A stretch of DNA of 64,000 nt from Chloroflexota bacterium (GCA_021787935.1 JAJYLC010000001.1:4598-68597), one strand, 5' to 3'. Positions 1,539 through 41,567 are shown, numbered from the stretch's first letter. Notes: generated by a model from the letters alone, not told the origin. Translations and numbers: made by a program.

Positions 1539-2771
1539 CTAGTTTATTATTCCTGCCTTTCTTAGTACACTGATACGCGTGGCATCATAGCCAATGCTGT
1601 GCAGCACCTCTTCAGTGTGTTGTCCAAGTTGTGAAGCCCAGTTAGCAACCCGAAATGGCGAGTCTGAAAGCTTTACCAAAGGACCTACCTGCCTGGTGTG
1701 CCCTAAGATAGGATGAGGCATTTCCCTGATAGTGCCACGGTGGATCAAATGAGGGTCAGACACCAACTCATCAAAAGAATATACCGGTGCAACACAGGTA
1801 TCTTTTTGCCGCAGCAATTTTACCCATTCATCGCGGGTCTTGGTCAGAAAAGTCTGTTTGAAGAATTCAAATATCTGCGCCTGCTTATTATTCCCTGCAT
1901 ATTGATGCTCAATGAAGTCTTCACGTCCCAGAAGCTGACACAAATTGGCATAAAACCATGGCTCAACAGCACCTATGCTGATATACTTTCCATCCTTTGT
2001 TTCATAAACGTTATACCACGGCCACTGGCCAGTGAACATCGTCTCTCCTCTTTTAGGCAGCGGCCCTCCGTACAAGTATTCATTTATCCATTCACCCATG
2101 AGTCCAACTACCGCATCGGTCATAGATACATCCACAAATTGTCCAAGCCCTGTCCTTTGGCGTGAGGCAAGCGCAGCCAGAATCCCGATCGCTGCGGACA
2201 TTCCGCCTGCGGCGAAGTCTGCAACCAACGTACCGGGAAGTGCCGGAGCACCGCCGGCATTCCCCGTCATATCTAAAAGACCACCAATCGAAATGTAATT
2301 AATATCGTGACCAGCCACATCGCGGTAAGGACCATCTTGCCCAAAGCCCGTTATTGAAGCATATACAATTGCTGGATTGATTTTTCTAACGGTCTCGTAG
2401 CCGATGCCTAAGCGATGGGTAACGCCGGGCCTAAAACTCTCTACTATGACGTCAGCAGTTTTGACTAGCTCATAAAATATCTCGAGCCCGGCTTCCGCTT
2501 TTAGATTAATTCCCGCGAATCTGCAATTCCGTAAGCCGGGGAATTTGGGTAGGTCCGGGAACTGCAATTTTATGGGGCCTCCGCGACTTTCCAGGTGAGG
2601 CTCATGGATTTTTATAATGTCAGTGCCAAGGTCGCCCAGAATCCGAGCGCAAAAGGGTCCAGGGCCAAACAGAGCCATATCCAGTACTCTTATACCTGCC
2701 AAGGCCGCAGATTTCTCTTCACGGCCGGGCTGGGATTCCGCGCCATTGGTCTCCATATAACCTCCCTCCAA
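1539..2771 (-). CDS. CoA-transferase family III (CaiB/BaiF-like)
   Basis: 410-aa ORF; N-terminal GIRVLDMALFGPGPFCARILGDLGTDIIKIEP motif typical of family III CoA-transferases. Confidence 0.8.
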   Translation of the reverse strand: MEGGYMETNGAESQPGREEKSAALAGIRVLDMALFGPGPFCARILGDLGTDIIKIHEPHLESRGGPIKLQFPDLPKFPGLRNCRFAGINLKAEAGLEIFYELVKTADVIVESFRPGVTHRLGIGYETVRKINPAIVYASITGFGQDGPYRDVAGHDINYISIGGLLDMTGNAGGAPALPGTLVADFAAGGMSAAIGILAALASRQRTGLGQFVDVSMTDAVVGLMGEWINEYLYGGPLPKRGETMFTGQWPWYNVYETKDGKYISIGAVEPWFYANLCQLLGREDFIEHQYAGNNKQAQIFEFFKQTFLTKTRDEWVKLLRQKDTCVAPVYSFDELVSDPHLIHRGTIREMPHPILGHTRQVGPLVKLSDSPFRVANWASQLGQHTEEVLHSIGYDATRISVLRKAGIIN

Positions 2772-2837: not shown

Positions 2838-4184
2838 CTACGCGGGTTGGATTCTATAAAATGTTTCGTCGAACTCAGGCCGCCCCACGTACTTTTTGTA
2901 GTAGCTTTCTGCCATTTTCTCCATTAGCTCGAGGAAGTTGTCTGGCAATTCTATCCCCAGTTGTCTATAAGCTTCTATCAGGTCTCGCCTGCTCGGTGGG
3001 CAACCCTTGATGCTTACACAATGGCTAATCAGGGGGTTGTTCTTGTTTCTCTTCACCTGACATTGTCCAACAAGGAGGGTGTGTTTATGCTCTCCTGAGG
3101 GATTAAGAATTCTACCATGCAACACTTCGATATCATCAAAGGGCTGGTCTTTATTCTTTGCCATCAAGATACCCCAAATAACGTAATAAATGAAATCCGT
3201 GCAATATGTACACATAGTCTTATCTGCCTGAGGGTATGTCAGTCCCTTTATTCCGGCCCTTTCAAAGAACTGGGGCAGCTCACCTGAGTCACTTTGTTTG
3301 AATTCCCACTCATGGGGAGCTAAAGCCGTCCTGATATCAATATCTCCCATGATATTTATGTCACTCAAATCAATCGGCCTACCTTTACAATCAGCCGTGT
3401 ACACAATGTACGGAATAGTATGTGGTTCTATACCAAGTATTGTTGCCCCCACCTTGTCGGCCGAGAGGACATCCTTTGAAGCTATGATGATGTTAGAGCG
3501 ATGTGCCAGACCAGTATAAAGAGGCCCTCTCTCTAACGAATAAATGCCATCTATGATAGTAAGTGACGGCGAGAGTATATCTGGCAATCTGGACAAGTGA
3601 TAATCCAGATCGATGCTACCTTCCGGGGTGTGGCATTTTTTTCTGGAAGGTATGCTGAGCACACCTTTCAAGTTTTTGATACCCAGGGAAACCATAGTCT
3701 GGGCATGAGTCTTAAGTGCCGGCATATTGATTATAAAGTCGGCTTCAAGGATATCCTTGCTGACTGATAGCGTCACCCCATCTGCAGTGACATTGGTGAA
3801 TCTTCCTCTCAGTGCGTCGATAATCTTGATGCCGTAGCGCTTTGCTAAAATATCGAGCCCCATGCCTTTGGCTACGCGCTCAAGTGTTGATTCCGGTTTC
3901 TTCTCTATTTCAACTACGCCCTCTATTATTGTGATGTCTTTAGCCCCGTGCTCCTTCAGCAGGATTAGCATATCCTCAATAAGCCGTGCCGTAGTGAGAA
4001 CGCCATACTTGGGAAAGTTGACTCCTTCATGCCAGACACAGAAGTTAGGTTTGATAAAAACCCTGGATTGGGCGGAAATTCCTGCAAGCCCTCCAATGAG
4101 GTCCACTGTTTTCTTCAACGACTCAAGGGGCTTTTCATATCTCACGACTGCGACATCGTGCATTACACTTCCCATCCTTGTCAA
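2838..4184 (-). CDS. DUF362 domain protein (putative Fe-S associated)
   Basis: 448-aa ORF. N-terminal VAVVRYEKP...VFIKPNF resembles the DUF362 signature. Cys-rich C-terminus. Confidence 0.6.
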   Translation of the reverse strand: MTRMGSVMHDVAVVRYEKPLESLKKTVDLIGGLAGISAQSRVFIKPNFCVWHEGVNFPKYGVLTTARLIEDMLILLKEHGAKDITIIEGVVEIEKKPESTLERVAKGMGLDILAKRYGIKIIDALRGRFTNVTADGVTLSVSKDILEADFIINMPALKTHAQTMVSLGIKNLKGVLSIPSRKKCHTPEGSIDLDYHLSRLPDILSPSLTIIDGIYSLERGPLYTGLAHRSNIIIASKDVLSADKVGATILGIEPHTIPYIVYTADCKGRPIDLSDINIMGDIDIRTALAPHEWEFKQSDSGELPQFFERAGIKGLTYPQADKTMCTYCTDFIYYVIWGILMAKNKDQPFDDIEVLHGRILNPSGEHKHTLLVGQCQVKRNKNNPLISHCVSIKGCPPSRRDLIEAYRQLGIELPDNFLELMEKMAESYYKKYVGRPEFDETFYRIQPA

Positions 4185-4395: not shown

Positions 4396-4803
4396 ATGGA
4401 TAAACGTAAAATCCGTGTATTGCTTGGTAAGATAGGGCTTGATGGCCATGATAGAGGGATAAGGATGATCGCCACATGGCTCTCCAAAGGTGGCATGGAA
4501 GTAGTGTATATGGGAACCCATCAGACAGCAGAGCGCATGGCGCGAACGGCGATCGATGAGGATGTAGATGTTATTGGCCTGAGTTTCCAGGGGGCAGACC
4601 ATGTTCCCTTGATCAGAATGATGGCTGACCAGATAAAGCGCAACAACCTGGAAGACAGACTGCTTGTAGTCGGTGGCAATATTCCTCGCCGTGATATCGA
4701 AGTGCTAAAGCAGATGGGGGTTGATGAGGTGTTCCCCAGCGGCACAGCTATGAGCAAGTGCGTGGCCTACGTCCGGGAGAATGCTTTCAAGAGGAGGAAT
4801 TGA
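4396..4803 (+). CDS. acyl-CoA mutase B12-binding small subunit (methylmalonyl-CoA mutase C-terminal domain-like)
   Basis: 135 aa; canonical cobalamin-binding DxHxxG motif (GLDGHDRG) and MCM B12-domain-like sequence. Confidence 0.85.
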   Translation: MDKRKIRVLLGKIGLDGHDRGIRMIATWLSKGGMEVVYMGTHQTAERMARTAIDEDVDVIGLSFQGADHVPLIRMMADQIKRNNLEDRLLVVGGNIPRRDIEVLKQMGVDEVFPSGTAMSKCVAYVRENAFKRRN

Positions 4804-4804
4804 A

Positions 4805-6538
4805 ATGGTAGGGCAGATGAAGGAGCAGATAAAGGGCGGTTACTTCGAGAAAGCAGAGAGGCAGGAGACCTGGTCTGGTATCCCGGTGAAACCACTTTAT
4901 ACCCCTGATGATGTCAAGAGCATAAAATATCCCGAGCAAGTTGGCGACCCGGGTCAATATCCATTTACCAGAGGTATATATAAGGACATGTATAGGGGTC
5001 GATTGTGGAGCCGGCGGCAGATTACGGGTTGCTCAACTCCAAAGCTGACTAACGAGCGGCTCAGGTATCTTATCAGCCAGGGAGAGAGCGCCATCAATGT
5101 CATCTGCGACCAACCCACTCAAATCCAGATTGACTCTGACCATCCCTGGGCGGAGGGAAGCGTGGGTCGTGCAGGTACTCCAATCAACACCATGCAGGAT
5201 GTATGGACCATCATGGATGGAATACGCCTGGATAAAACCAGCACCATGCTCACTGCACATTCACCACTTACTCTTCCATCCTACATGTTACTGGCAGACA
5301 AACAGGGAGTACCTTACTCTGAACTGAGGGTGAGCGGTGTAATCACACCCCCAACAGTATCAGCGCCAGTCTGTCTATATGGTGGCCGTGAATCAGCGGA
5401 TCAGCAGGGAATCCCGTGGAGTACAGTGGTGACGCAAGGCAACAATGAACGACTATTTGATGTACAACAGAAGAGAATGAAGGAGTTCGCTGACAAGCTG
5501 GAGTTCATAATAAAGAACTGCGATAAGATGTACCCAGCAAATTTCAACGGATACATCATTAGAGAAGTCGGCGTTGGGGCGGCTGAGGAGGTGGCTTGGG
5601 AATTTGCCAGGGCGTTCGAATCGTTTGATATGCTCACTAAACGCGGTATGGATATCAACCTCGTTGCGCAGAAAGTCAGTTTCACTTTCAGTGCTATGAT
5701 CGATATATTTGAAGAGGCAGTTAAATTCAGGACAGCCAGGCGGGTCTGGGCACGCAATCTCAAGAAGAAATTTGGAGTCACTGATCCACGCGCCTTGTGG
5801 CTCAAGTTCCACGTAAATACGGCAGGAGTCATGATGGAGCGCCAGCAACCGATTATAAATATCATTCGCGCTGCCTATGGTGCTTTGGCAGCGGTCCTGG
5901 GTGGCACACAATCACTTCAGGTAGCTGGCTATGACGAGGCAATAGCAATCCCAACAGAGGAAGCAGCAACTATTGCACTACGCACCCAGCAGATTTTAGC
6001 CTATGAATCTGGAGTTGCGACAGTAGCCGATCCTTTGGGCGGCTCCTATTACGTGGAGAGCCTGACTGAAAAGATGGATGAGAAAATGCAAAAGATAATT
6101 GATACGATAGATGCAATGGGTGGAATGACAAAAGCAGTAATCAGCGGATACATTGACCGTGAGATGGAAAAGGCCTGGCTAAAGTACCAGCAGGAACTAG
6201 AGGAAAAGAAACGCATTGTCGTCGGCGTTAATGAGTTTGCTATTCCTGAAGAGGAAGATGCTGATGTGGAGGCATATCACCATCAGGTTGATTTCGACTT
6301 AGTTCATAGATATATTGAGGACCTCAAAGAATTCAAGCGTACCCGCTCCCGAACGAAGGTTAAAAAAGCTTTGGAAAACCTGCGTCGTGCTGTTGAGACC
6401 AGCGACCCGGAGATACTCCGTTTTGAGATGGAGTGTTGCAAGGCCGGCTGCACTACCGGTGAGGTCGGGGGAGCTAAGAGGATAGGTGTAGGTTTGCCCT
6501 ATGACCCGATGGGGATTCTGGAGTACCCTTTCGACTAG
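4805..6538 (+). CDS. acyl-CoA mutase large (catalytic) subunit, methylmalonyl-CoA mutase family
   Basis: Track ORF 4781-6538. AGAGGAGGAA Shine-Dalgarno at 4789-4798 followed by ATG at 4805 gives MVGQMKEQIKGG... Homologous to the MCM TIM-barrel domain (…RTHTQTSG-like, SLQVAGYDEAIAIPTEEAA…). Overlaps the small subunit stop, suggesting translational coupling. Confidence 0.85.
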   Translation: MVGQMKEQIKGGYFEKAERQETWSGIPVKPLYTPDDVKSIKYPEQVGDPGQYPFTRGIYKDMYRGRLWSRRQITGCSTPKLTNERLRYLISQGESAINVICDQPTQIQIDSDHPWAEGSVGRAGTPINTMQDVWTIMDGIRLDKTSTMLTAHSPLTLPSYMLLADKQGVPYSELRVSGVITPPTVSAPVCLYGGRESADQQGIPWSTVVTQGNNERLFDVQQKRMKEFADKLEFIIKNCDKMYPANFNGYIIREVGVGAAEEVAWEFARAFESFDMLTKRGMDINLVAQKVSFTFSAMIDIFEEAVKFRTARRVWARNLKKKFGVTDPRALWLKFHVNTAGVMMERQQPIINIIRAAYGALAAVLGGTQSLQVAGYDEAIAIPTEEAATIALRTQQILAYESGVATVADPLGGSYYVESLTEKMDEKMQKIIDTIDAMGGMTKAVISGYIDREMEKAWLKYQQELEEKKRIVVGVNEFAIPEEEDADVEAYHHQVDFDLVHRYIEDLKEFKRTRSRTKVKKALENLRRAVETSDPEILRFEMECCKAGCTTGEVGGAKRIGVGLPYDPMGILEYPFD

Positions 6539-6555
6539 CATAGAGTATGGGTAAT

Positions 6556-6954
6556 CTAATTACGGGCAACCGATTTTATTAACTCAATGAGATAATTTGT
6601 GTCTGTGCCAGCACCAAAGACCTCTTTAATGCCCTGTTTCTTTAGCCAGTCGATATCCTCATCAGGGATCAATCCTCCAACCAGAACCATTACATTCCCC
6701 AAACCCTTTTCTTTGAGCAAACGCATCACCACAGGGACATGGTCATCGTAAGCACCTGTTGAGAAACTCATGCCAATAACACTGGCATCCTCTTGCACGG
6801 CCGAAGTGGCTACTTCTTCAGGCCGCATGTATACTATATAAACTACTTCAAAGCCTGCGTCTCTCAAAATCGTGGCGACACTCTTCACTCCTCTATCATG
6901 GCACTCCATCCAATGCTTGACTAAAAGTACTTTAGTTCTGCCTTGGGATTTCAA
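6556..6954 (-). CDS. acyl-CoA mutase B12-binding small subunit (second copy)
   Basis: 132 aa; B12-binding domain with ExHxxG variant (ECHDRG); homologous to CDS 4396-4803. Confidence 0.8.
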   Translation of the reverse strand: MKSQGRTKVLLVKHWMECHDRGVKSVATILRDAGFEVVYIVYMRPEEVATSAVQEDASVIGMSFSTGAYDDHVPVVMRLLKEKGLGNVMVLVGGLIPDEDIDWLKKQGIKEVFGAGTDTNYLIELIKSVARN

Positions 6955-6992
6955 TTTATCTACCTCCCGGTTTAATTTGGGCTTGGCTCCGT

Positions 6993-8699
6993 CTACATTT
7001 GCACTGCCATAGTGTACTCAGGTCCCCACTTGAAAACTTTTCTCAATGTCTTCGATATCTCGCCACAGGTAGCCCTTGCTCTGGCAGCTTCGACACATGC
7101 AGGCATAATATGACCGTACTCGCCTTTGTCCAACCGCTTAGCTGCTGCTACCAGAGCGTTGAGCGCTGCATCAGTTTTTGCCTGATCACGCTTAGCTTTA
7201 AATTCCTTAATGCGTTCTATAGCGACCTTGGCCACCTTGGGATCAGCTCTAAATGGTTTAATAACTTGTTTCTCCGGGACTGTATATTTGTTCCAACCCA
7301 CGACTACGCGCTCGCCCTTATCGATAGAACGGCGCCACTGGGCAGAGTGCTTCCGTAGTTCGGCCATTAGCATCCCATTCTTGTGGGCCTTAACAAATCC
7401 GCCAGCGTCCTCTATTTCCTTTAAAATCTTTCTCGCTTCCTGCTCCATCCGGTGGGTGAGCCACTCCACATAGTAGGAGCCTGCAAGCGGGTCGCTCACC
7501 TTAGTTATGCCCGTCTCATGACGTATTACCTGTTGTATCCTGAGCGCCAGAACAGCAGATTCTTCGGTAGGAATGCCAATCGGTTCGTCATATGCAGCAA
7601 CTTCCATGGCTGTTGTTCCGGAAAGCGCTGCCCCCAGGGCATGGAAGGAGCTTCGAATCAGGTTGACTAACGGTTGTTGCTTTGTCAGCTCAAAACAGGA
7701 GGTGTGCGTATGTGTTCTCAACTGCATTGACGAAGCTCTCTTACAACCATATCTATCATGTGCAATATTAGCCCATAACTTTCTCCAAGCCCTGAACATG
7801 CAGATATATTCAAAGAAATCATTGCACTGCGCTATTTGAAATCCTATCCCAGGCATAAATGCATCCGGGTCCAGCCCCGCTGCCACGCAAGAGTCTGCGA
7901 TAGCGATGGCAGTAGCTATACCATATGTCATCTGGTGAACAGCGTCTGCACCACTTTCCGACATGCCGTGGCCCTGAATGTTCGTATGATTCCAGTTAGG
8001 CATTTCTTTACTGCAGAACCAGATTACATCTGTAGCTAATTTCAAACCGCCTTCGGGTTCCCACATGTGGTTGGGGGCATACCAGGCTCCGAATTGCCAG
8101 TTCATGGTGTTTCCACGAAGCTGGCTGGGTTTGAGTCCTTGTGTCTCTGCATAAACTATGAAGTGCGCAAGGTAAGCAAGAGTATCGCCGTTTATCAGTA
8201 CAATGTTAGTCTTTGTCAGGTCCATGCCATGTAGCATTCGGCCGAAATCTTCGAAGGTAGGGCAACTTACTCCATCCTTGCCAATATACCCCTGCGCATC
8301 AGGCTCGTCTGGATCAACCCCAAAGTGGGTCGGTACATCGCACACAATATTGTAAGCCCTGCCGCCAAAATAGCCCTCCATCCCGGCCGCAGCGAGTTTG
8401 TCCATTCGCTCTCGTGTATGTTCAGGCAACCCATAGCCATGCACAGGCTGGTTTATCCAAGATTGAAATTGATAATGTATGGGATAGTTGCTCCTCATAT
8501 AAGGATATGCGCCAGGGAAACCGATGTCTTTCTCAAAATCGAGGTCTTGTAAATCCAGAGGAGTATATAAAGACTTTATCGGTATGCCGGAGGAGTCCGT
8601 TGTCGAAGAAAAGTCTTTACCCTGATATCTCTGAGCAATGGCTTCATCATATTGTTTCATGAGTTTGCGACATTGTTCCACTGTCTTTTCATCAAACAT
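6993..8699 (-). CDS. acyl-CoA mutase large subunit (second, divergent copy)
   Basis: 568 aa. Homology to the MCM catalytic domain (…LRTHTHTS…AMEVAAYDEPIGIPTEESAVLALRIQQVI…DPLAGSYYVEWLT…). Gene order large-then-small, opposite to the first pair. Confidence 0.8.
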   Translation of the reverse strand: MFDEKTVEQCRKLMKQYDEAIAQRYQGKDFSSTTDSSGIPIKSLYTPLDLQDLDFEKDIGFPGAYPYMRSNYPIHYQFQSWINQPVHGYGLPEHTRERMDKLAAAGMEGYFGGRAYNIVCDVPTHFGVDPDEPDAQGYIGKDGVSCPTFEDFGRMLHGMDLTKTNIVLINGDTLAYLAHFIVYAETQGLKPSQLRGNTMNWQFGAWYAPNHMWEPEGGLKLATDVIWFCSKEMPNWNHTNIQGHGMSESGADAVHQMTYGIATAIAIADSCVAAGLDPDAFMPGIGFQIAQCNDFFEYICMFRAWRKLWANIAHDRYGCKRASSMQLRTHTHTSCFELTKQQPLVNLIRSSFHALGAALSGTTAMEVAAYDEPIGIPTEESAVLALRIQQVIRHETGITKVSDPLAGSYYVEWLTHRMEQEARKILKEIEDAGGFVKAHKNGMLMAELRKHSAQWRRSIDKGERVVVGWNKYTVPEKQVIKPFRADPKVAKVAIERIKEFKAKRDQAKTDAALNALVAAAKRLDKGEYGHIMPACVEAARARATCGEISKTLRKVFKWGPEYTMAVQM

Positions 8700-8763: not shown

Positions 8764-9555
8764 CTATTTCTTGTCCCTGGTTTCTCCTTTTAGAAAGCGG
8801 TCAAAGGCATTACTCATGAACTCTGTAGCGAATATTGAGGGCATCATTCGCTCAGCCTGCTGGTAATCGCACATAGCATTACGGTTGAGTACGCTTTTAA
8901 TGTAGGCTTTGGCCATGTAGCTGTTGGCGGCGATCCGCCTGGCTATCTCTTCGCATTTTGGAATCAACTGGTCGTCCTCGAAAACGTCCAGCACGATTCC
9001 TAGGCGTTTCGCTTCCTCTGGACTGAGTTCCACGGCTGACATACACAGATAGGCTATGACTTGCTTGCCAAGCTTCTCCAGTCCACGGGTCACCGCCCAA
9101 GCAGGCAGTGCACCGTGATTGATCTCCTTTAGAGCAAACTTAGCGCTTCTGGCAGCAAACGTCATATCACAAGCACCTGAAATCTCAAAGCCGAATCCGA
9201 AGGCTGCGCCGTTTACCGCGGCGATGACCGGAGTTTCGCTCAGCTCAATGGCCTTGAAAGGTTCGAAACATGCCTTGACGAAGTCGAATCCCGCTTCGGT
9301 CTTTCCAACCGTAGCGAATTGTTCGACATCCGCACCGGCGGAAAATACAGGGAAAGGGGTACCTTTCTTGGGATGAGTGAAGGTTTGTCCAGTTAGAATC
9401 ATGCAGCCGACATCTTTATCTCCATCAAGCTCCTGTACCGCAGCGGCCAATTCGCTAAAAATCTGCCTATTGGCGGCATTGAATTTGTCAGGACGGTTGA
9501 AAGTCATAATGGCAATGTTGCCCTTCTTCTCCACTTTCATTACCTCGTATTTCAT
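8764..9555 (-). CDS. enoyl-CoA hydratase/isomerase (crotonase family)
   Basis: 263 aa; crotonase-fold motifs (…FSAGADV…; N-terminal IAIMTFNRPDKFNA). Confidence 0.8.
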   Translation of the reverse strand: MKYEVMKVEKKGNIAIMTFNRPDKFNAANRQIFSELAAAVQELDGDKDVGCMILTGQTFTHPKKGTPFPVFSAGADVEQFATVGKTEAGFDFVKACFEPFKAIELSETPVIAAVNGAAFGFGFEISGACDMTFAARSAKFALKEINHGALPAWAVTRGLEKLGKQVIAYLCMSAVELSPEEAKRLGIVLDVFEDDQLIPKCEEIARRIAANSYMAKAYIKSVLNRNAMCDYQQAERMMPSIFATEFMSNAFDRFLKGETRDKK

Positions 9556-9597: not shown

Positions 9598-11388
9598 TCA
9601 GGCGCTCTCCCATTCAGCCTGAATGATGGACGGGAGTTTGACAGCCCGTTCTTTCCCGCTCATGAAGTCAAGGTATCTGATGCCCTGCGGATCGATCTTC
9701 CTGATAAGTTCGAGTTCCTGCACTGTGGGTAATTTGGTAACTGGGCAATCAGAAGGTACTTCGACTTTGAATCCTGTATTATTGGCAACATCTTCTGCCT
9801 TAATACCCTTGTGCAGAGAGAGGGCTTTCCATTTGCCTCGCTCGACCATCTGCATGACACAGAGATTAGTCACCACAATCAGAGGACCAGGGCGCAGCCC
9901 CTGTGCCTTGCGTTCCTCGTCGGTAAAATAGTATCTCGTGCCCGTAATATAGTTAACCTTGGGTACAAATGTGTTTTTTGAGTGTCCGGCAAAATAGGCA
10001 ACTCCCTTTCGATGCAATCCGTAGACCACAGGTGCTCCGGCCCCTCCGGGAAGACGGATGGCGCGTGGGTTGATCTGGCCTGTTGGTTTGCCCTCTGCAT
10101 CTTTGACTGGCAGGGCTAGCCAGGAAATGTTGATGTCTCCGTTAGCATCCAGTTGCGCGCTGGAAACAGCTTCCACATCGCCCATACCTCTGAGGTGTAG
10201 TGCCTCAATGCATTCAGTCATAGACCAGAGTCCGGCCGCATACTCAGTGCACGCAGCCTCCGAGGAGTGGAAACTCAACTGGAATGGAAGAGGGTCAACA
10301 CCGCTATAACCAACGATGAAGGCATTGGGTGCGTGCGTCAGCTTGGCCAGCATGTATGCAGTGTACGCCAGTGGCGTGAACGAACCTAATATAATAGAAT
10401 CGCCATCTTCGATGGTGCGTGCCAGGCTGACCACCATCTGGTCCGCGGCATCAAACTCAAGTGCCGGTTCTTTGCTCACAGTAGAGGGAAATTCAATGTA
10501 CTTAGCATGTTTGGCCAGGCTGGAGAGTTTTCTTTTTGTTACATCCCCACCTACATTTCTTAGATACTCCTCCTCATTTTCACCAATGAGTTGCCGGATA
10601 TATTCTGGAGCCATTTTGGGGTCGCCAAGACCCTGGACATCTTTCATCATTTGCAACAGATGAGCGGAATAGTAAGGTACACAACTACAAGGAGCAGCAC
10701 CAAAGGGGCAATGGATTACCAGGTCCACTTCAGGTCTGAACAGCACGGTTGCCGTTTTATTTGTGCGAATTTGTTCTGGCGAGACAATCTCCTCCACGGT
10801 GACGATAACTGACCTGGCAGCCATTGCCATATCGAGGTCAGATGCTGACGTGCCGAAGATCTGTACATTGCCTTGCTCATCAGCCCTTTGTGCATGGATG
10901 ATCGCCACATCTGGTGATATAGCCTGTACGGCTGTAAGTTCTTTCCCGGTAAAAGGGCAAGTCACTGTTTTATATAGTTCAGGTGCTTCTTTGATGATAT
11001 CAGATCCCTTGGGCCCAGCGAATGCGGCAAAGGGCAGGCCTCTACCAGCGGCCTGTAGCCCCTTGACCATGCTGCAGCCCTCGATTTCGGTTAGTTTAAT
11101 CAATTTTCTCTCTGCGACTCTGCGGAAGTTGGGAGGCAATCCGAACGACTCCAGGCTCAAGAAGCTGAACACTAGATGGTCAACCGCACCGGCTGCCAAC
11201 AGCCATTCCATTTCCCATCCCCCAACGATAGACATCACTTTCAAACCAGTGATTTTCTGCCGGATGATTTCTCTGATGATTGCCATAGGCTTATTGCAGC
11301 TCCATCCACCCCCAATGCCCACAAAACTTCCATTTTTCACATATCCTTTGATGTCGCTCAATTTCCCCAGCTTGCTACGCAAAGTCAT
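9598..11388 (-). CDS. family I CoA-transferase, fused A/B subunits (glutaconate/3-oxoacid CoA-transferase-like)
   Basis: 596 aa. N-terminal KLSDIKGYVKNGSFVGIGGG resembles CoA-transferase subunit A. Length consistent with an A+B fusion. Confidence 0.6.
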   Translation of the reverse strand: MTLRSKLGKLSDIKGYVKNGSFVGIGGGWSCNKPMAIIREIIRQKITGLKVMSIVGGWEMEWLLAAGAVDHLVFSFLSLESFGLPPNFRRVAERKLIKLTEIEGCSMVKGLQAAGRGLPFAAFAGPKGSDIIKEAPELYKTVTCPFTGKELTAVQAISPDVAIIHAQRADEQGNVQIFGTSASDLDMAMAARSVIVTVEEIVSPEQIRTNKTATVLFRPEVDLVIHCPFGAAPCSCVPYYSAHLLQMMKDVQGLGDPKMAPEYIRQLIGENEEEYLRNVGGDVTKRKLSSLAKHAKYIEFPSTVSKEPALEFDAADQMVVSLARTIEDGDSIILGSFTPLAYTAYMLAKLTHAPNAFIVGYSGVDPLPFQLSFHSSEAACTEYAAGLWSMTECIEALHLRGMGDVEAVSSAQLDANGDINISWLALPVKDAEGKPTGQINPRAIRLPGGAGAPVVYGLHRKGVAYFAGHSKNTFVPKVNYITGTRYYFTDEERKAQGLRPGPLIVVTNLCVMQMVERGKWKALSLHKGIKAEDVANNTGFKVEVPSDCPVTKLPTVQELELIRKIDPQGIRYLDFMSGKERAVKLPSIIQAEWESA

Positions 11389-11518: not shown

Positions 11519-11615
11519 ACGAGTAATTGAGTGAGCTATATACTAATAACTACTTCTTAAGAGCTACAACGGTTCGTTTGGAGTAATCTAGAATTTAGAT
11601 AGAAAGAGAGTGAAT

Positions 11616-12605
11616 ATGGCCGAAAAGAAAAAGCGGTTTAGAGTACTCATCAGTGACCCTTTGCTTAAGGAGATGGTGAATGAGGCAAAGAAACAGTACC
11701 CGGAATACATTTCTAAGATAGATTTTGAGATTATGGAAAAAGCTGATGAACAGGAGCTTAGAGATAAGCTCCCTGGAGTTGATATTCTCATGTGCGCCAG
11801 GAGCAGGATAAACAGGAATGTGCTGGAGAAAGCGGATAAACTGTTTTTTATTCAGCAATGCAGTGCAGGATACGACAATATAGACCTCAAGGCAACAAGG
11901 GAGAAAGGTATCGATGTTTCAAATGCAGGTGGTGCCGGGGTTATTCCGGTGGCAGAGCATACGATAATGCTTATGCTGGCTATATCTAAGAACCTGATAA
12001 AGTCTGATAGAACCATGAAAGCGGGTGAATGGATATTCGGGGAGTGCGTTGGGAGGGTTTACGAACTGAGGGACAAGGTAGTGGGAATAATAGGACTGGG
12101 GAAAATCGGGGCTCAAGTAGCCCGGCTCGCCTATGCATTCGGTATGCGGATACAATACTACGATCCGTACCGAAAAGATACCAGCGACTTGGGCTTTCCT
12201 GCTAAAGCGGTATCATTGGAAGAATTACTGAAGACGTCAGACTACGTTAATATACATACTTTGTTGACACCTGAAACAAGGAGTCTCATCGGGCGAAAAC
12301 AACTGGAAATGATGAAGCCTACAGCATATTTAATAAATACCTCCAGAGGTGCTGTGGTTGATGAAGAGGCGTTGGCGGATATATTGCAGGCCAAGAAGAT
12401 AAGGGGGGCTGGGATAGATGTTTACGGAGAGCATGGTGACCCACCCCCAAAGAACAGCAGGTTGCTGAAGCAAGACAATGTGGTGCTAACGCCCCATATT
12501 GGTGGAGTTACCGCCGAGGACCTTTATCGTAACTTCTACGTTTCATCTTTGGGCAATGTTATCGCCGTGATCAAAGGGGAGAAGCCCAAATGGGTTATAA
12601 ATTAA
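11616..12605 (+). CDS. D-isomer-specific 2-hydroxyacid dehydrogenase (NAD-binding)
   Basis: Track ORF from GTG 11610; the ATG at 11616 is preferred. GLGKIGAQVARLA Rossmann motif and D-2-hydroxyacid dehydrogenase catalytic-domain similarity. Confidence 0.8.
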   Translation: MAEKKKRFRVLISDPLLKEMVNEAKKQYPEYISKIDFEIMEKADEQELRDKLPGVDILMCARSRINRNVLEKADKLFFIQQCSAGYDNIDLKATREKGIDVSNAGGAGVIPVAEHTIMLMLAISKNLIKSDRTMKAGEWIFGECVGRVYELRDKVVGIIGLGKIGAQVARLAYAFGMRIQYYDPYRKDTSDLGFPAKAVSLEELLKTSDYVNIHTLLTPETRSLIGRKQLEMMKPTAYLINTSRGAVVDEEALADILQAKKIRGAGIDVYGEHGDPPPKNSRLLKQDNVVLTPHIGGVTAEDLYRNFYVSSLGNVIAVIKGEKPKWVIN

Positions 12606-12707: not shown

Positions 12708-14360
12708 ATGCTACAGACGAAAAAAGGTGACACACTCGGAACAATACTGGACCGAGTGACCGCAAAGTATCCCAAGAACGAGGCTATGATCCATGGCAGC
12801 GCAAGGATAACCTATGACACGTACATGGATAAGGTGAACTCGATAGCCAACGCCTTGCTGAAGCTGAGCGTGAAGAAGGATGACAAAGTATCCATCTGGA
12901 TGAGCAATAAGCCTGAGTGGGTCTACGCTCATTTCGCGGCAGTGAAAATAGGTGCGCCTGTCATACCGCTAAGCACTCGATACAAGACGCATGAACTCGA
13001 ATATATTCTCAAGAAGTCTGATACTACTACCCTCTTCATGATGGAACGTTTTCTAAAACTGGACTATATTCCTATGATTTACGAGCTATGTCCAGAACTT
13101 AAGACATGCAAGCCCGGAGACCTGCGAAGCGAAAGATTCCCGCTACTTAAGCGGATTATCATATTGAGTGAAAAAAGCTATGACGGAATGCTGGATTATT
13201 ACAAGGTACTGGAGTCTGGAAAGGATTATTTGAACAGCGCTGCATTGAAAAAAGCCCAACAGGCCATCAAGCCCGAGGATGTCTACATAATCCCATTTAC
13301 CTCGGGTACGACTGGTTTCCCCAAAGGAGTGGTTACCACCCATTCCCAGTATATAGGAGTCATAGAAGGCTTCAGTGAAAGATTCCAGATGACTGATAAG
13401 GATCGCATTCTGGTTGTATCCCCATTCAATAATAACATGGGTAATATGACCGGTCTTACGCTGGGAGCACTACACGGGGCCTGCATTCTACCTATGGAAA
13501 GCTTCGATCCAGGAGAGGCTCTGAGGCTGATAGATGAGGAAAAGGCTACGAACTTCACAGGCGCTCCAACGATGTATATTATGATGCTCGATCACCCTGA
13601 CTTCCCCAAGCGAAATACTAAGTCTATAAAAAGTGCCATAATCGGCGGAGCCGATGTTTCTCCCGATTTGGTAAAGACTATTATCGAAAAGATGGGCATA
13701 AAAGACATGATAGCCGGCTATGGCATGACCGAAAACACCGGTATCAGCACCTGTACAAGGCGAGGAGACCCGCCCGAGTTGGTCGCAAATACTGCTGGCA
13801 AGCTCATGTTCAAAGGTTGTGATCTAAGGATTTTCGATCCTGATACTGATAAAGAAGTACCCCGGGGCACCCAGGGTGAGATTCGTACAAAGGGCTGGTT
13901 TGTAATGAAAGAGTATTACAAGATGCCCGAAGAAACTGCAAAAGCCTTTGATAAGAGCGGCTGGTTCCACACCGGCGACCTGGGCGTGATGGATGAAAAG
14001 GGATATATAAAGATCACCGGCCGTTTGAAAGATATGTATATTTCAGGCGGTGTAAACGCATATCCTGCGGAGATAGAGAGCTTCCTTTATACACACCCAA
14101 AGGTGGCAATGGTTGCCGTATTTGGTGTGCCAGATAGGAGGATGGGTGAGGTAGGCGCAGCCTTCATAAAATTGAAGGATGGCCAAACTGCAACAGAGGA
14201 AGAGATTATAGCGTTTTCTAAAGAAAGGTTGGCCAATTACAAAGTCCCCAAGTATATAAAATTTGTAAAAGATTTTCCCATGACCCTTACAGGAAAGGTT
14301 CAGAAGTTTGTGCTAAAAGAACAAATCGTGAAGGAATTGGCGCTGGATAAGCAGCAATAA
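12708..14360 (+). CDS. AMP-dependent acyl-CoA synthetase/ligase
   Basis: 550 aa; AMP-binding motifs (PFTSGTTGFPKGV; YGMTE; GWFHTGDLG…ITGRLKD). Confidence 0.85.
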   Translation: MLQTKKGDTLGTILDRVTAKYPKNEAMIHGSARITYDTYMDKVNSIANALLKLSVKKDDKVSIWMSNKPEWVYAHFAAVKIGAPVIPLSTRYKTHELEYILKKSDTTTLFMMERFLKLDYIPMIYELCPELKTCKPGDLRSERFPLLKRIIILSEKSYDGMLDYYKVLESGKDYLNSAALKKAQQAIKPEDVYIIPFTSGTTGFPKGVVTTHSQYIGVIEGFSERFQMTDKDRILVVSPFNNNMGNMTGLTLGALHGACILPMESFDPGEALRLIDEEKATNFTGAPTMYIMMLDHPDFPKRNTKSIKSAIIGGADVSPDLVKTIIEKMGIKDMIAGYGMTENTGISTCTRRGDPPELVANTAGKLMFKGCDLRIFDPDTDKEVPRGTQGEIRTKGWFVMKEYYKMPEETAKAFDKSGWFHTGDLGVMDEKGYIKITGRLKDMYISGGVNAYPAEIESFLYTHPKVAMVAVFGVPDRRMGEVGAAFIKLKDGQTATEEEIIAFSKERLANYKVPKYIKFVKDFPMTLTGKVQKFVLKEQIVKELALDKQQ

Positions 14361-14528
14361 CTTCCGATTCTTGCTGAAATATGCTCAGTTCTGCGGCCAT
14401 TCAATGGAGAGCTGGGACTTTTGGAAATTGGCACCGCGGTACATTGTGCGTAGTTTTCAACTGAGTCTTTGTCGCAGGCTTATATCTGGATTTCGCATGA
14501 CTGGATAACAAAAAAGGGAGGGACAAGA

Positions 14529-15653
14529 GTGAATTTCAATCTAACTGAGCAGCAGGAGATGTTCCAGAAGTCAGTCAGGAGATTTGCTGAAGCTGAGTTA
14601 ACGCCGCTGATAGATGTGATGGACAAAGAGAATAGATATCCCTTCGAAATACGGCCGAAATTGGTTGCGATGAACCTCCTGGGGATCCCGTTCGACCCGA
14701 AATATGGCGGAGCCGGTGCGGACTATGCAAGCCTGGCTCTAGCTATGGAAGAGGTAGCGAAGGTATTGGCTCCCATGGCTATATCCATGCAAGTAGGAAA
14801 CGTCACTGCTGACAGATTCAATAAACTTGGCACCGAAGAACAGAAAAGAGAATTCATGATTCCGATCTGTGAAGGGAAGAGAGTCGTCTGCTTTGCATTC
14901 ACGGAGCCGGATACAGGCTCGAATCCCAAAATGATTAAAACAACGGCAAAATCGGCGGGCGATGGCTATGTAGTGAACGGCATTAAAAGATTCATCACGC
15001 ATGGGACGTTTGCTGACGCAGCATTAATCTTTGCTAAAGACGACGACGGAGACATCAGCCTATTCATAGTTGAAACGGATCGGAAGGGATTCTCTACTGA
15101 CAAGAAGATGGACAAATTGGGTCTGAGGGGAACGGAACTCTGCGACCTGATAATGAATGATGTTCATATACCTAAAAAGAATATTTTGGGAGGCAAAGGC
15201 AAGAAATTCGATGCTTTGAAGGATGCAATGACGATAGGCAAATTGTGTTTAAGTGCCCAGTGTGTTGGGCTAATGCAGGCTTCCCTGACAGAAGCCATTA
15301 GATACTCGGTGCATCGAATGCATTTCGACCATCCCATATTCGACCTGCAGGCTATTCACTGGCTACTTGCCGAGATGGCATCCAGACTGGAGGCAGCGCG
15401 CTGGCTCACTTACCGGGCTGCTTTCTTGAAAGACCAGGGTATGGACACCATAAAAGACATGGCAATGACCAAGTTATTTGTCACCTCAACGGCGGTAGAC
15501 GTGGTTAGATGGGGAATGCAAGTTCACGGCGCTTACGGTATTAGCAAAGAATATAAGATCGAGCGACTCTTTAGAGACGCTAAGATGTATGAGCTGCTTG
15601 AGGGCACTTCTGAGATACAACGGGAATTGATAGTTAAGCGTTTACCCAGGTAA
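14529..15653 (+). CDS. acyl-CoA dehydrogenase
   Basis: Track ORF starts at 14469. GGGAGGG RBS at 14514-14520 then GTG at 14529 gives VNFNLTEQQEMF…, the typical ACAD N-terminus. C-terminal …YEGTSEIQR… motif. Confidence 0.8.
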   Translation: MNFNLTEQQEMFQKSVRRFAEAELTPLIDVMDKENRYPFEIRPKLVAMNLLGIPFDPKYGGAGADYASLALAMEEVAKVLAPMAISMQVGNVTADRFNKLGTEEQKREFMIPICEGKRVVCFAFTEPDTGSNPKMIKTTAKSAGDGYVVNGIKRFITHGTFADAALIFAKDDDGDISLFIVETDRKGFSTDKKMDKLGLRGTELCDLIMNDVHIPKKNILGGKGKKFDALKDAMTIGKLCLSAQCVGLMQASLTEAIRYSVHRMHFDHPIFDLQAIHWLLAEMASRLEAARWLTYRAAFLKDQGMDTIKDMAMTKLFVTSTAVDVVRWGMQVHGAYGISKEYKIERLFRDAKMYELLEGTSEIQRELIVKRLPR

Positions 15654-15728: not shown

Positions 15729-16946
15729 CTAGTCCACTTTAATTATGGCAGCATTGGCCTGGCCTAATCCTCCGCATATAGCACCCAAGGCATAGCCACC
15801 GCCTCTCCTCTGGAGCTCGTACATCAGGTTCATTATAATCCTGGCACCACTGGCTGTGTTGGGATGTCCTATAGCGATGGCACTTCCGTTAATATTTGTC
15901 CTGTCTCTTATATTTTGTAATTTCTTTTTGTCATCCCCAGCTATTAGCTTTGTAGAGACCAGAGGGACACAGGCGAAAGCTTCATTTATCTCCATAACAG
16001 ATAAATCATCAATACTCAGTTGGGCTTTCTTAAGCACACGCTGTATGGCATGGCCCGGCGCCTCAGCGATTCGGCTGGCTGAAATAGCAATCGATACTTG
16101 AGCAACCAGAGTTGCCAAAGGTGTAAGCCCGAGGTCTTCAGCCCGTCTCCGTGTCATCAAAAGAATTGCAGCAGCTCCGTCGTTCATCCCGGGAGCATTA
16201 CCGGCAGTGATAGCTCGAGTATTGTATATAGTCTTCAGCTTCGAGAGTCTCTCCAGGCTAGTATCAGACCGATATTGTTCATCAATGTTTAATAATTTAG
16301 ACACTCCACCCGGTTGCTGTATATTGAGCGATATTAACTCATCCTTAAATTTGCCGGCATTCCAGGCATCGCCATAGTTAACATGGCTTCGTAGAGCCCA
16401 TTCGTCCTGCTCACGTCTCTCTATTCCATACTCGGCGGCTACATTATCAGCATCAACAGCTACCGGATTAAAATCATTATAACCCAGCGCCTGCAGGGGG
16501 TCTTCCATCTTTACATCCCCTAGCCGATAGCCGCCGAATCGTAATCCTCTGACAATAAGAGGTTCCTGACTAAAAGAGGTGGCACCACCGGCAATGGCCA
16601 CATCGATTTCTCCCGAGGCAATGGTCATAGCAGCAAGTTTGACGGCATGCATTGCGGAAACACATGCCATGTCAAACGATATAGACGAAGTCTCATGAGG
16701 AAGTCCTGCCTTGATGAGCGACTGTCTGGCAGCAACAGGTGTGAAAGGGTCTTTACACGGCGACGTATCCCCTACCCCCCAGAAAACCCAGTCTACGGCA
16801 TCCGGGTTGATTTTAACTCGATTGAGCACCTCTTTGATCGGGATTGCCCCCAAGTCATAATAATCGAAGTCCTTGAGCATGCCACCGTATCTTCCAAAAG
16901 GTGTCCTGGCAGCACTGACTATAACTACATTATTTTCACCAGGCAC
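15729..16946 (-). CDS. acetyl-CoA C-acyltransferase (thiolase)
   Basis: 405 aa; thiolase N-terminal VIVSAARTPFGRYGG and C-terminal GLGQANAAII-like motifs. Confidence 0.85.
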   Translation of the reverse strand: MPGENNVVIVSAARTPFGRYGGMLKDFDYYDLGAIPIKEVLNRVKINPDAVDWVFWGVGDTSPCKDPFTPVAARQSLIKAGLPHETSSISFDMACVSAMHAVKLAAMTIASGEIDVAIAGGATSFSQEPLIVRGLRFGGYRLGDVKMEDPLQALGYNDFNPVAVDADNVAAEYGIERREQDEWALRSHVNYGDAWNAGKFKDELISLNIQQPGGVSKLLNIDEQYRSDTSLERLSKLKTIYNTRAITAGNAPGMNDGAAAILLMTRRRAEDLGLTPLATLVAQVSIAISASRIAEAPGHAIQRVLKKAQLSIDDLSVMEINEAFACVPLVSTKLIAGDDKKKLQNIRDRTNINGSAIAIGHPNTASGARIIMNLMYELQRRGGGYALGAICGGLGQANAAIIKVD

Positions 16947-17001: not shown

Positions 17002-17862
17002 CTACGCAGAATAGCTGTAAAACCCTTTGCCGCTCTTTCTCCCCAGATGACCGGCTCGAACCATTTGTCGCAGCAGCAACGGCGGACGATATTTGGGATC
17101 GCTATACTCTCTGTACAGGTTTTCCATAACGTAAAGAAGTGTGTCCAATCCCACGAAATCCGCTAACTCCAAGGGGCCCATGGGGTGATTCATCCCCAGC
17201 CTCATGCTTTTATCGATATCCTCGGCGCTGGCTATGCCTTCAGCAAATGCATGAATCGCCTCATTCATCAGGACGGCAATAAATCTGCTGGTAGCAAAAC
17301 CCGGCGTGTCAGAAACGACTATCGGCGTTTTCCCCATCTTAACTGATAACTCTTCTATGGATTTAATGGTTTCCTCGCTAGTGCTGTATCCTCGAACTAT
17401 CTCCACTAGCTGCATCATAGGTACTGGGTTCATGAAATGCATGCCTATAAACCGGTCTGCTCTCTTGGTGGCGGATGCCATCTCAGTGATGCTCAGGCCC
17501 GAGGTGTTAGAGGCGAAAATAACGTGAGATGGACTCTCGTTGTCTATGGCTTTGAAGGTTTCTTTTTTGAGGGACAATATCTCTGGGATTGCCTCTATTA
17601 CGACATCAACATCTCTAACAGCTTCAATCAGCTTGTTTGTACATTTGATCCTTGACAGGGCAGTATCTGTGTCGGCTTGGGTAATCTTTCCCTTTTTAAC
17701 CATGCGCCCCAGGCTCTGCTTAACAGCAGCCATGCCTTTCTCAAGAAACTTATCCTCGATATCTCTCAACTTCACCTCGAGACCGGCTTGGGCTGCAACC
17801 TGGGCGATACCTGCACCCATAAGCCCTGCGCCCAACACACATACCTTACGTATTGCTGCCAT
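17002..17862 (-). CDS. 3-hydroxyacyl-CoA (3-hydroxybutyryl-CoA) dehydrogenase
   Basis: 286 aa; N-terminal VCVLGAGLMGAGIAQV Rossmann motif; HBD family. Confidence 0.85.
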   Translation of the reverse strand: MAAIRKVCVLGAGLMGAGIAQVAAQAGLEVKLRDIEDKFLEKGMAAVKQSLGRMVKKGKITQADTDTALSRIKCTNKLIEAVRDVDVVIEAIPEILSLKKETFKAIDNESPSHVIFASNTSGLSITEMASATKRADRFIGMHFMNPVPMMQLVEIVRGYSTSEETIKSIEELSVKMGKTPIVVSDTPGFATSRFIAVLMNEAIHAFAEGIASAEDIDKSMRLGMNHPMGPLELADFVGLDTLLYVMENLYREYSDPKYRPPLLLRQMVRAGHLGRKSGKGFYSYSA

Positions 17863-18013: not shown

Positions 18014-18090
18014 AGGGGTGTAGCTCAGTCAGGTAGAGCGGCGGTCTCCAAAACCGTTGGTCGTGGGTTCGAATCCTGCCACCCCTGCCA
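18014..18090 (+). tRNA. tRNA-Trp (anticodon CCA)
   Basis: Cloverleaf folded by hand. Acceptor AGGGGTG/CACCCCT, D-loop with GG, anticodon loop CTCCAAA, T-loop TTCGAAT, discriminator G plus encoded CCA. Nearly identical in layout to E. coli tRNA-Trp. Confidence 0.85.
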
Positions 18091-18093
18091 TTT

Positions 18094-18181
18094 GCCGAGG
18101 TGGTGGAACCTGGTAGACACGCCATCTTGAGGGGGTGGTGAGCGAAAGCTCGTAGGAGTTCAAATCTCCTCCTCGGCACCA
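18094..18181 (+). tRNA. tRNA-Leu (anticodon GAG), long variable arm
   Basis: Acceptor GCCGAGG/CCTCGGC; anticodon stem CCATC/GGTGG with loop TTGAGGG; long variable arm TGAGCGAAAGCTCGT; T-loop TTCAAAT; ACCA end. Confidence 0.8.
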
Positions 18182-18205
18182 TGCTATAATAGTAACGTGA
18201 AGCGA

Positions 18206-18280
18206 GCGGAAGTAGTTCAGCGGTAGAATGCCTCCTTGCCAAGGAGGAGGTCGCGAGTTCGAATCTCGTCTTCCGCTCCA
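18206..18280 (+). tRNA. tRNA-Gly (anticodon GCC)
   Basis: Acceptor GCGGAAG/CTTCCGC; anticodon stem CCTCC/GGAGG with loop TTGCCAA; T-loop TTCGAAT; encoded CCA. Confidence 0.85.
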
Positions 18281-18282
18281 AT

Positions 18283-20073: not shown

Positions 20074-20095
20074 AGGGTAACCACTTATTATTGTA

Positions 20096-21643: not shown

Positions 21644-21714
21644 CAGCGTTACCTCCTCTAGCGGCTGCTTTTCTAACGGAAATTACTCGGCTAGCCTGCT
21701 GATAATAAATTCAC

Positions 21715-41539: not shown

Positions 41540-41567
41540 AGAATCCGTCTGCTCTGGGTTAATCCAA

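Follow-up and report, generated by a model that had tools for sequence, protein, structure and literature searches.

Two convergent split B12-dependent acyl-CoA mutase pairs with remodelled substrate pockets in a Chloroflexota bacterium

Introduction

To our knowledge, only about half a dozen specificities are known among B12-dependent acyl-CoA mutases, namely those of methylmalonyl-CoA mutase (MCM), isobutyryl-CoA mutase (ICM), ethylmalonyl-CoA mutase (ECM), 2-hydroxyisobutyryl-CoA mutase (HCM/RCM) and pivalyl-CoA mutase (PCM). Each new specificity opened a pathway: the ethylmalonyl-CoA pathway, the degradation of methyl tert-butyl ether and acetone, and synthetic CO2-fixing modules. In MCM, Tyr89 and Arg207 bind the carboxylate of the substrate, His244 is thought to aid the rearrangement by hydrogen-bonding to the thioester carbonyl, and Glu370 is the residue that contacts the adenosyl group. 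ICM carries Phe at the Tyr89 position and Gln at the Arg207 position; in HCM, Asp117 of the large subunit HcmA hydrogen-bonds to the substrate hydroxyl. Here we analysed a stretch of 64,000 nucleotides from a Chloroflexota bacterium (GCA_021787935.1, JAJYLC010000001.1:4598-68597; hereafter the window), in which positions 4396 to 8699 hold two split mutase pairs, each composed of a large substrate-barrel subunit (L1, L2) and a small B12-binding subunit (S1, S2), with substrate pockets unlike those of MCM, ICM and HCM (Table 1).

Our favoured reading, which we hold at a probability of about 0.6, is that the window encodes two functional adenosylcobalamin-dependent acyl-CoA mutases which belong to two deep, uncharacterised clades and act on uncharged short acyl-CoAs of the C4-C5 type. 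An earlier note on this DNA had proposed that the two pairs rearrange differing acyl-CoAs rather than methylmalonyl-CoA. Methylmalonyl-CoA can indeed be set aside, the two pockets do differ and non-carboxylate substrates are probable, while the residue argument offered in support does not hold, as described below.

Results

Both pairs have the complete mutase architecture

Open reading frame (ORF) listing, translation and Pfam matches confirmed the four genes of the earlier note (Table 2), with S1 followed by L1 on the plus strand and L2 followed by S2 on the minus strand. The pairs converge as it had described, with 17 nt between the stops of L1 (6538) and S2 (6556), and the large subunits are quite divergent from each other (30% identity; 39% between S1 and S2). 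The overlapping stop and start reported for the first pair was not found: the TGA of S1 occupies 4801-4803 and the ATG of L1 at 4805 lies one base beyond. We placed the L1 start at this ATG and not at ATG 4781, because a GAGGAGG ribosome-binding site lies 7 nt upstream of it and database homologues are called at 577 aa. Similar sites precede the ATG of S1 at 4396 (GGAGGAG) and, by 8 nt, the TTG start of S2 at 6954 (GGAGG). Around the mutase genes, an Rfam scan gave no regulatory RNA, cobalamin riboswitches included.

Architecture and cofactor motifs are complete in both pairs. The large subunits scored 497 (L1) and 481 bits (L2) against Pfam PF01642 and 449 and 448 bits against TIGR00641 (cut-off 304), and the small subunits scored 124 (S1) and 113 bits (S2) against TIGR00640 (cut-off 57), so that each pair combines a substrate domain above the curated cut-off with a partner bearing the His-on B12-binding motif, as expected of the acyl-CoA mutase superfamily. 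This motif is the canonical DxHxxG in S1, and in S2, as had been noted before, it is ExHxxG, with His and Gly kept and Asp replaced by Glu. The Glu is kept in the closest orthologues of S2 and gives way to Asp in more distant ones (DIHDRG in the small partner of an L2 relative with 69% identity, DAHDRG in a Streptomyces relative), and therefore appears to be a lineage-specific conservative change.

The substrate pockets are remodelled

Residues are numbered after MutB of P. shermanii, anchored on the PDB mutant chains 5REQ (Y89F) and 1E1C (H244A). Chain 1E1C_A reads GYAMQEAG at chain index 243, so that the residue number is the index + 1; because of this offset, and because 5REQ_A reads WTIRQFAGF where MutB has WTIRQYAGF, Tyr89 is the Y of the latter string. 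The Tyr of THRGYDSD is Tyr125. It was this Tyr that the earlier note had taken for the substrate-specifying residue, and its comparison was thus made in the wrong column. The strings it aligned there, PTQIQIDSD (L1) and PTHFGVDPD (L2), do exist in the translations; even in that column L2 carries Val and not the Phe it had read, which aligns with Arg123. The Ile it gave for L1 is correct at position 89, although by accident, and L2 has Val at this position. With Val89, the assignment of L2 to the isobutyryl-CoA type on the strength of a Phe falls, and that of L1 to HCM on the strength of an Ile is unsupported as argued, as Asp117, the His244 equivalent and Phe287 are all replaced. The loss of His244 in both families had been overlooked.

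Table 1. Residues of L1 and L2 at specificity and catalytic positions (MutB numbering unless stated otherwise)
Position	L1	L2
Tyr89	Ile (RRQ-I-TGC, aligned to HcmA RQ-I-AGF)	Val (NQP-V-HGY)
HcmA Asp117 (IST-D-FD)	Ile (INV-I-CD)	Val (YNI-V-CD)
Asn168	His	kept
Gln197	segment replaced	Met
Arg207	segment replaced	Pro
Tyr243-His244	Tyr-Ile	His-Gly
Arg283		Gly
Phe287	Thr	Gln
Gln330	Asn	His
Asn366	Ala	Ala
His328 and Glu370	kept	kept

Both pockets are remodelled, clade-fixed and largely hydrophobic, and they have neither Tyr89/Arg207 of MCM, nor Asp117 of HCM, nor the Phe of ICM. In L1 the segment from Gln197 to Arg207 reads 'VITPPTVSAPVCLYGGR' instead, with an insertion of about 20 residues; the motif that stands, together with this insertion, in place of the Gln197/Gln208 segment is 'VITPPxxxAPVCxYGGR'. 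The Ile that HcmA has at the Tyr89 position (Ile90) is found in L1 only. To judge by these residues, the pockets exclude MCM activity and match neither ICM, for want of the Phe, nor HCM, for want of Asp117.

That both proteins are ordinary MCMs, as publicly annotated, is accordingly extremely unlikely. The names used in the source annotations are 'methylmalonyl-CoA mutase N-terminal domain/subunit' or 'family protein', and the Pfam family itself is named MM_CoA_mutase. However, Tyr89, Arg207 and His244 are replaced in both proteins, and their scores against the MCM equivalog NF006944 (351 bits for L1, 373 for L2) are far under the cut-off of 876. True split MCMs keep these residues: in those of Ilyobacter polytropus and Brevibacillus laterosporus the canonical set is complete, R207 included, and their clusters (L136, L137) contain mce and carboxyltransferase genes and, in Ilyobacter, also meaB. 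In the 64-kb window there is neither a methylmalonyl-CoA epimerase nor a carboxyltransferase of this kind.

His244 next to Tyr243 is absent from L1 and L2 alike, and its absence across several large clades is the most surprising feature of these proteins. It leaves superfamily membership intact and marks a variant catalytic apparatus, in which His243 and His330 of L2 are candidates to replace the missing residue; in L1 this region is lined by the invariant Cys76 and Cys190, by Asn330 and, in the close clade, by His152. Inactive MutA-type subunits, whose chains are among the PDB matches, are a precedent within the family, and the lost catalytic His could be taken to mean that at least one large subunit is an inactive paralogue of the MutA kind, with a structural or regulatory role. 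We regard this as very unlikely: each large subunit has its own adjacent, translationally coupled B12 subunit with the His motif, Glu370 and His328 are invariant, and PDB matches to MutB (about 209-267 bits) score far above those to MutA (85-107 bits). In addition, the strict conservation of the pockets within each clade argues for selection on a defined pocket, and the L1 and L2 modules also occur apart in other genomes, so that neither depends on the other and the two are independent systems. We also considered L1 and L2 as one hetero-oligomer in the manner of MutA/MutB, and rejected it given the separate B12 subunits and the separate occurrence of the modules.

The pocket residues are fixed within two deep clades

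Residue frequencies were counted in an alignment of 240 homologues from two database searches. The L1 clade comprised 53 cluster representatives at an identity of at least 47%, the L2 clade 38 and the L2 superclade, which includes Streptomyces and Saccharopolyspora proteins, 79. Ile89, Ile117, Thr287, Asn330 and Glu370 were each present in 53/53 members of the L1 clade, none of which had His at position 244 (Ile in 29, Asn in 20, other residues in 4). In the L2 clade, Met197, Gln287 and Glu370 were found in 38/38, Val117 in 37/38 and His243 in 35/38 representatives; His244 occurred in 0/38 and, in the superclade, in 0/79. As a control, 29 canonical archaeal-type matches in the same alignment carried Y89, A116, Q197, Y243, H244, F287, Q330 and N366. 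Because they are fixed across the clade representatives, the pocket residues of L1 and L2 are family traits and not sequencing noise. Names from Dehalococcoidia and Anaerolineae metagenome-assembled genomes are borne by members of the homologue clusters.

In a neighbour-joining tree, L1 and L2 fell into two separate superclades, each lying outside the clade of human MCM, HcmA and archaeal MCM-like proteins; neither copy thus clusters within bona fide MCMs. Identities of L1 and L2 to human MCM and HcmA were 33-36%. The best PDB match of L1 was HcmA (4R3U, 1e-99; MCM 7e-82), and those of L2 were nearly equal (human MCM 5e-90, HcmA 1e-89). Matches to IcmF were remote in both the PDB (153 bits for L1, 137 for L2) and the IcmF equivalog (188 and 167 bits; cut-off 1500). 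An AlphaFold2 model of L1 reached a predicted template modelling (TM) score of 0.77 and a mean predicted local distance difference test score of 71; Foldseek placed HcmA 4R3U first and MCM after it (TM 0.74-0.76), and IcmF lower (TM 0.65-0.68). Modelling of the pocket on this structure was dropped owing to low confidence in the insertion and in the N-terminal CoA-clamp region.

When the full L1 alignment served as scan query, the generic motif [AV]DPL[GA]GSYY dominated the results, which comprised only canonical MCM-like loci at no more than 42% identity. A tblastn search of plasmids with L2 gave nothing above 39% identity; the split-MCM controls and further uncharacterised mutase clusters came from it. 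Literature searches on uncharacterised acyl-CoA mutases in Chloroflexi and on the acetone pathway of sulfate reducers found no characterised member.

Several other mutases with divergent residues were seen during this survey. On a plasmid of Sphingobium sp. WTD-1 (L138, 6962-10047), a non-canonical mutase with Ile89, Ile117, His243-Asn244 and a MeaB lies inside an Atu-like acyclic-terpene utilisation cluster (carboxyltransferase, biotin carboxylase, AtuA), which suggests a further mutase specificity. Sinorhizobium meliloti pB (L139, 5533-11081) carries an HCM-like mutase with Val89, Asp117, Gln207 and Tyr-His, labelled 'methylmalonyl-CoA mutase family protein', in the order small subunit, MeaB, large subunit, enoyl-CoA hydratase (ECH) and AMP-ligase, adjoined by an aminotransferase. 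In L132-L135 (9001-10668) a large subunit from a more distant clade without His244 (P0063; Tyr-Asp at 243-244) has no called B12-binding subunit beside it and adjoins a branched-chain-type ABC transporter and an acyl-CoA ligase.

A racemase-like gene and a DUF362 gene accompany the L1 pair

Table 2. Genes of the two mutase pairs and of their surroundings (positions in the window)
Feature	Position	Strand	Remarks
Alpha-methylacyl-CoA racemase-like protein	1539..2771	-	PF02515 (CoA_transf_3) 1e-99
DUF362 protein	2838..4163	-	441 aa by homologue length; PF04015 2.5e-35; divergent from S1-L1
S1, small B12-binding subunit	4396..4803	+	135 aa; DxHxxG as DGHDRG; PF02310 2.6e-20
L1, large substrate-barrel subunit	4805..6538	+	577 aa; PF01642 7e-149
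S2, small B12-binding subunit	6556..6954	-	132 aa; TTG start; ECHDRG; PF02310 1.8e-18
L2, large subunit	6993..8699	-	568 aa; PF01642 4.5e-144
Crotonase-type ECH	8764..9555	-	PF00378 2.4e-41; directly upstream of L2, same operon
Fused family-I (glutaconate-type) CoA-transferase-like protein	9598..11388	-	PF01144 2.2e-36; first gene of L2 operon
D-isomer-specific 2-hydroxyacid dehydrogenase	11610..12605	+	PF02826 7e-59, PF00389; divergent from L2 operon
Acyl-CoA ligase (AMP-forming)	12708..14360	+	PF00501 6e-81; under all NCBIfam equivalog cut-offs
Short-chain acyl-CoA dehydrogenase (ACAD) / enoyl-CoA reductase	14469..15653	+	ACAD domains
Acetoacetyl-CoA-type thiolase	15729..16946	-	Thiolase_N, Thiolase_C; TIGR01930 366 bits, cut-off 240
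3-Hydroxybutyryl-CoA dehydrogenase (HBD)	17002..17862	-	3HCDH_N, 3HCDH; PRK05808 399 bits, cut-off 408

The gene at 1539-2771 is a family III CoA-transferase according to Pfam and NCBIfam. In the PDB, however, its product scored highest with M. tuberculosis MCR and alpha-methylacyl-CoA racemase (AMACR) (241 bits, 1.4e-70), while CoA-transferases came lower, SUGCT at 198 bits and YfdW/Frc at about 160 bits. The protein also conserves the catalytic His126-Asp127 ('AGHDINYIS') and Asp156 ('VADF') of MCR; judged by these features, it is probably mis-annotated in public records. The neighbouring DUF362 protein had no PDB sequence match, and its homologues (438-442 aa) are named only 'DUF362'; the family shares a Pfam clan with the N-terminal domain of the lactate racemase LarA (PMC11770544).

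A metagenome scan with an alignment specific for the N-terminus of L1 yielded 33 loci. By tblastn, the racemase-like and DUF362 genes lay upstream of S1-L1 in 7/7 loci of the clade at an identity of at least 80% that had enough upstream DNA. In two loci (L095, L096) L1 is followed by a 2-hydroxyacyl-CoA dehydratase (two HGD-D genes), and in L140 a DUF362 gene co-occurs with a mutase of the L2 superclade. We also considered DUF362 as a chaperone or reactivase in place of MeaB; this was rejected, with nothing found beyond co-occurrence and the clan-level kinship to LarA.

The longer of the two dehydratase loci, L095, also has the dehydratase activator (BcrAD_BadFG) and a FAD D-lactate-dehydrogenase-like gene; its segment 12211-19672, between the L1 and L2 modules, holds the dehydratase genes, an FAD-linked oxidase and a restriction-modification pair (RE_Bpu10I and a methylase). 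DUF362 genes of the type of about 440 aa stand beside non-canonical mutases and HGD-D genes in Chloroflexota and Thermodesulfobacteriota (in L140 at 10001-11329 and 13764-14837). Elsewhere in the window, an ADP-forming acetyl-CoA synthetase alpha-type gene (22831-24318, minus strand; TIGR02717 441 bits, cut-off 567) resembles one that adjoins the racemase-like gene in L001, and may have a part in this acyl-CoA metabolism.

The second pair lies in an apparent operon of conserved gene order

The apparent operon of the second pair runs from the CoA-transferase-like gene through the crotonase to L2 and S2, behind a promoter-like site (11/12) at 11490-11462 on the minus strand. The CoA-transferase-like protein matched IpdA, GctA and AibA in the PDB, all at about 1e-24, and its C-terminal half matched B subunits. 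The crotonase has both catalytic Glu (GFGFE, KEINHG), with short-chain enoyl-CoA hydratase and 3-hydroxypropionyl-CoA dehydratase as best PDB matches. The full order is kept in at least 8 loci (L002-L007, L097/98, L099, L103, L107), the CoA-transferase being either fused or present as A+B, and the order ECH-L-S in L002-L007, L097/98 and a 46%-identical Streptomyces locus (L092), where it is flanked by thiolase, TetR, acyl-CoA ligase, HBD, metallo-beta-lactamase-fold protein and MeaB genes. Often the operon is extended by a second crotonase, or by AbfD/HpaB-like, SDR, MaoC and ACAD genes, and genes for a divergent D-2-hydroxyacid dehydrogenase (position conserved in L002, L003, L006 and L103), a 2-oxoacid:ferredoxin oxidoreductase and an acyl-CoA ligase often lie alongside. 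Domain scans agreed with the earlier note on the neighbours, namely crotonase, ACAD, thiolase, HBD and D-2-hydroxyacid dehydrogenase. For the ACAD, the best NCBIfam model was acryloyl-CoA reductase AcrC (346 bits, cut-off 640), and the best PDB matches were short-chain and butyryl-CoA dehydrogenases and CarC.

These neighbours bear on a more specific form of the idea in the earlier note: one or both mutases could convert branched alkyl acyl-CoAs into linear ones and back (the pairs isobutyryl/butyryl, 2-methylbutyryl/valeryl or isovaleryl/pivalyl) as members of clades non-orthologous to ICM and PCM, and so serve the anaerobic breakdown of branched-chain amino acids or fatty acids. The wholly hydrophobic pockets (Ile/Ile in L1, Val/Val/Met in L2) are consistent with such substrates, as are a short-chain ACAD, crotonase, HBD and thiolase that could process butyryl- or valeryl-CoA, the genes for 2-oxoacid:ferredoxin oxidoreductase and acyl-CoA ligases that adjoin the L2 module in related loci, and a racemase partner of L1 that would fit the chiral 2-methylbutyryl-CoA. 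However, the Phe/Gln pair of ICM is missing from both proteins, and their similarity to IcmF is remote; the recurrent D-2-hydroxyacid dehydrogenase, 2-hydroxyacyl-CoA dehydratase and FAD D-lactate-dehydrogenase-like neighbours point to hydroxy acids, and a crotonase in the L2 operon, with no ACAD there, fits a hydroxyacyl/enoyl intermediate better. We regard alkyl interconversion as possible, though on balance rather unlikely.

Directly after HBD, four tRNA genes are tightly clustered (18014-18354, plus strand), and a fifth lies about 9.4 kb beyond the cluster (27753-27836, plus strand). Between the cluster and the ADP-forming acyl-CoA synthetase-like gene, 18802-22446 (minus strand) holds three consecutive ORFs of 423, 515 and 243 aa without a significant Pfam family, the only match being a sub-threshold IS1595 zinc-ribbon; they could be an inserted or mobile segment. 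At 40001-42000 the GC content dips to 0.44, against about 0.51-0.52 in the flanks, and long ORFs are few.

Discussion

In our favoured reading of two functional mutases, L1 and L2 would each catalyse the radical 1,2-shift of the CoA-thioester group on an uncharged short-chain acyl-CoA. Within the L2 operon, an acid would be converted to its CoA ester by the CoA-transferase and then handled by the mutase and the crotonase, and the product may pass to ACAD, HBD and thiolase, the neighbouring enzymes of short-chain beta-oxidation or of the butyrate type. L1 may work with the racemase-like enzyme as MCM does with methylmalonyl-CoA epimerase. Such a partner would imply that the branched substrate or product of L1 is chiral at C2 and has an alpha-hydrogen; by this analogy, candidates are 2-methylbutyryl-CoA, 3-hydroxyisobutyryl-CoA and a 2-hydroxyacyl-CoA, and 2-hydroxyisobutyryl-CoA is ruled out as a racemase-linked candidate because it has no alpha-hydrogen.

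Several observations weigh against this reading. The substrate assignments for both clades are contextual. Without His244 the chemistry could differ or be slow. Neither Pfam scans of the 64-kb window nor tblastn with two MeaB queries (E>0.5) revealed a MeaB-type G-protein; the mutase clusters of Streptomyces, Sphingobium and Sinorhizobium do encode MeaB. The association with AMACR and DUF362 genes is limited to the Chloroflexota clade of at least 80% identity; for L1 relatives of about 65% identity, 9 loci show a bare MerR-S-L operon instead. The neighbour-joining tree took in no RcmA, IcmA, Ecm or PCM sequences, and the L1 model is of medium quality, with the insertion (residues 187-212) unmodelled.

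A bolder proposal, which we offer tentatively and think rather unlikely as a whole, is that the L1 clade, the racemase-like protein and DUF362 make up a naturally occurring mutase/racemase system whose C2-chiral acyl-CoA is a substrate of no known mutase, and that both clades dispense with His244, His243 and His330 substituting in L2. One candidate would be a native mutase converting a 2-hydroxyacyl-CoA (lactyl-CoA-type) to a 3-hydroxyacyl-CoA, and another a valeryl-CoA/2-methylbutyryl-CoA mutase. The lactyl-CoA-type activity is so far known from an engineered enzyme only, and has been called new-to-nature (PMC11599936).

Whatever their substrates, the two families form sizeable environmental clades in Chloroflexota and Thermodesulfobacteriota, with relatives in Actinomycetota, whose pockets are conserved, non-canonical and devoid of His244. 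Public annotations systematically mis-name these genes 'methylmalonyl-CoA mutase' and the racemase-like neighbour 'CoA transferase'. If the substrates were identified, the anaerobic metabolism of organic acids and amino acids would gain new carbon-skeleton rearrangements, the need for His244 in the mechanism would be put to the test, and natural scaffolds could become available for engineered reactions, lactyl-CoA/3-hydroxypropionyl-CoA isomerisation among them.

Comparison with known mutases

With MCM (MutB, human MMUT and the split enzymes of Ilyobacter and archaea), L1 and L2 share the superfamily, the fold, the B12 partner, Glu370 and His328. They differ from it at Tyr89, Gln197, Arg207, His244, Phe287, Gln330 and Asn366, all of which are replaced.

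The split large and small subunit architecture of both pairs is that of HcmAB from Aquincola tertiaricarbonis, which also has no Arg207 and is the closest solved relative of L1 by sequence and fold. L2, with Val89, stands as far from HcmA as from MCM. RcmAB of Kyrpidia tusciae and Bacillus massiliosenegalensis, the scaffold of the engineered lactyl-CoA mutase, is split as well. The pocket of B. massiliosenegalensis RcmA consists of I95, V122, V172, H174, Y252 and F296 (supplement of PMC11599936). Matched by spacing from the Ile, L1 has I, I, T, H, Y and T at these six positions (three identical and one similar), a tentative resemblance, and L2 has V, V, I, N, H and Q, so that its likeness is only hydrophobic (Val/Val).

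L1 might on these grounds be a 2-hydroxyisobutyryl-CoA/3-hydroxybutyryl-CoA mutase of the HCM/RCM type that feeds 3-hydroxybutyryl-CoA to HBD, crotonase and thiolase, whose genes lie nearby: its Ile at the Tyr89 position is shared with HcmA Ile90 and RcmA Ile95, its residue 117 is hydrophobic like RcmA Val122, and a His matches RcmA His174 by spacing. We consider this unlikely. Its identity to HcmA is only about 36%, and in the tree L1 falls outside the MCM/HCM clade; Asp117 and the His244 equivalent of HcmA are both Ile in L1, Phe287 (F296 in RcmA, Gln in L2) is Thr, the Gln197/Gln208 segment is replaced, and His152 is conserved in the closest clade only. Moreover, the conserved AMACR-like partner cannot act on 2-hydroxyisobutyryl-CoA, which lacks the alpha-hydrogen. 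Neither an hcl-type ligase gene nor meaH stands next to L1 or L2, unlike in the described hcm/rcm clusters (PMC7176365).

ICM, IcmF and PCM are very distant from both proteins (137-153 bits for IcmF), and they differ in having the Phe where L1 has Ile and L2 Val and in a fused or adjacent G-protein, which is not seen here. They nevertheless act on uncharged alkyl acyl-CoA substrates in a hydrophobic pocket, and in this respect are possible functional analogues of L1 and L2.

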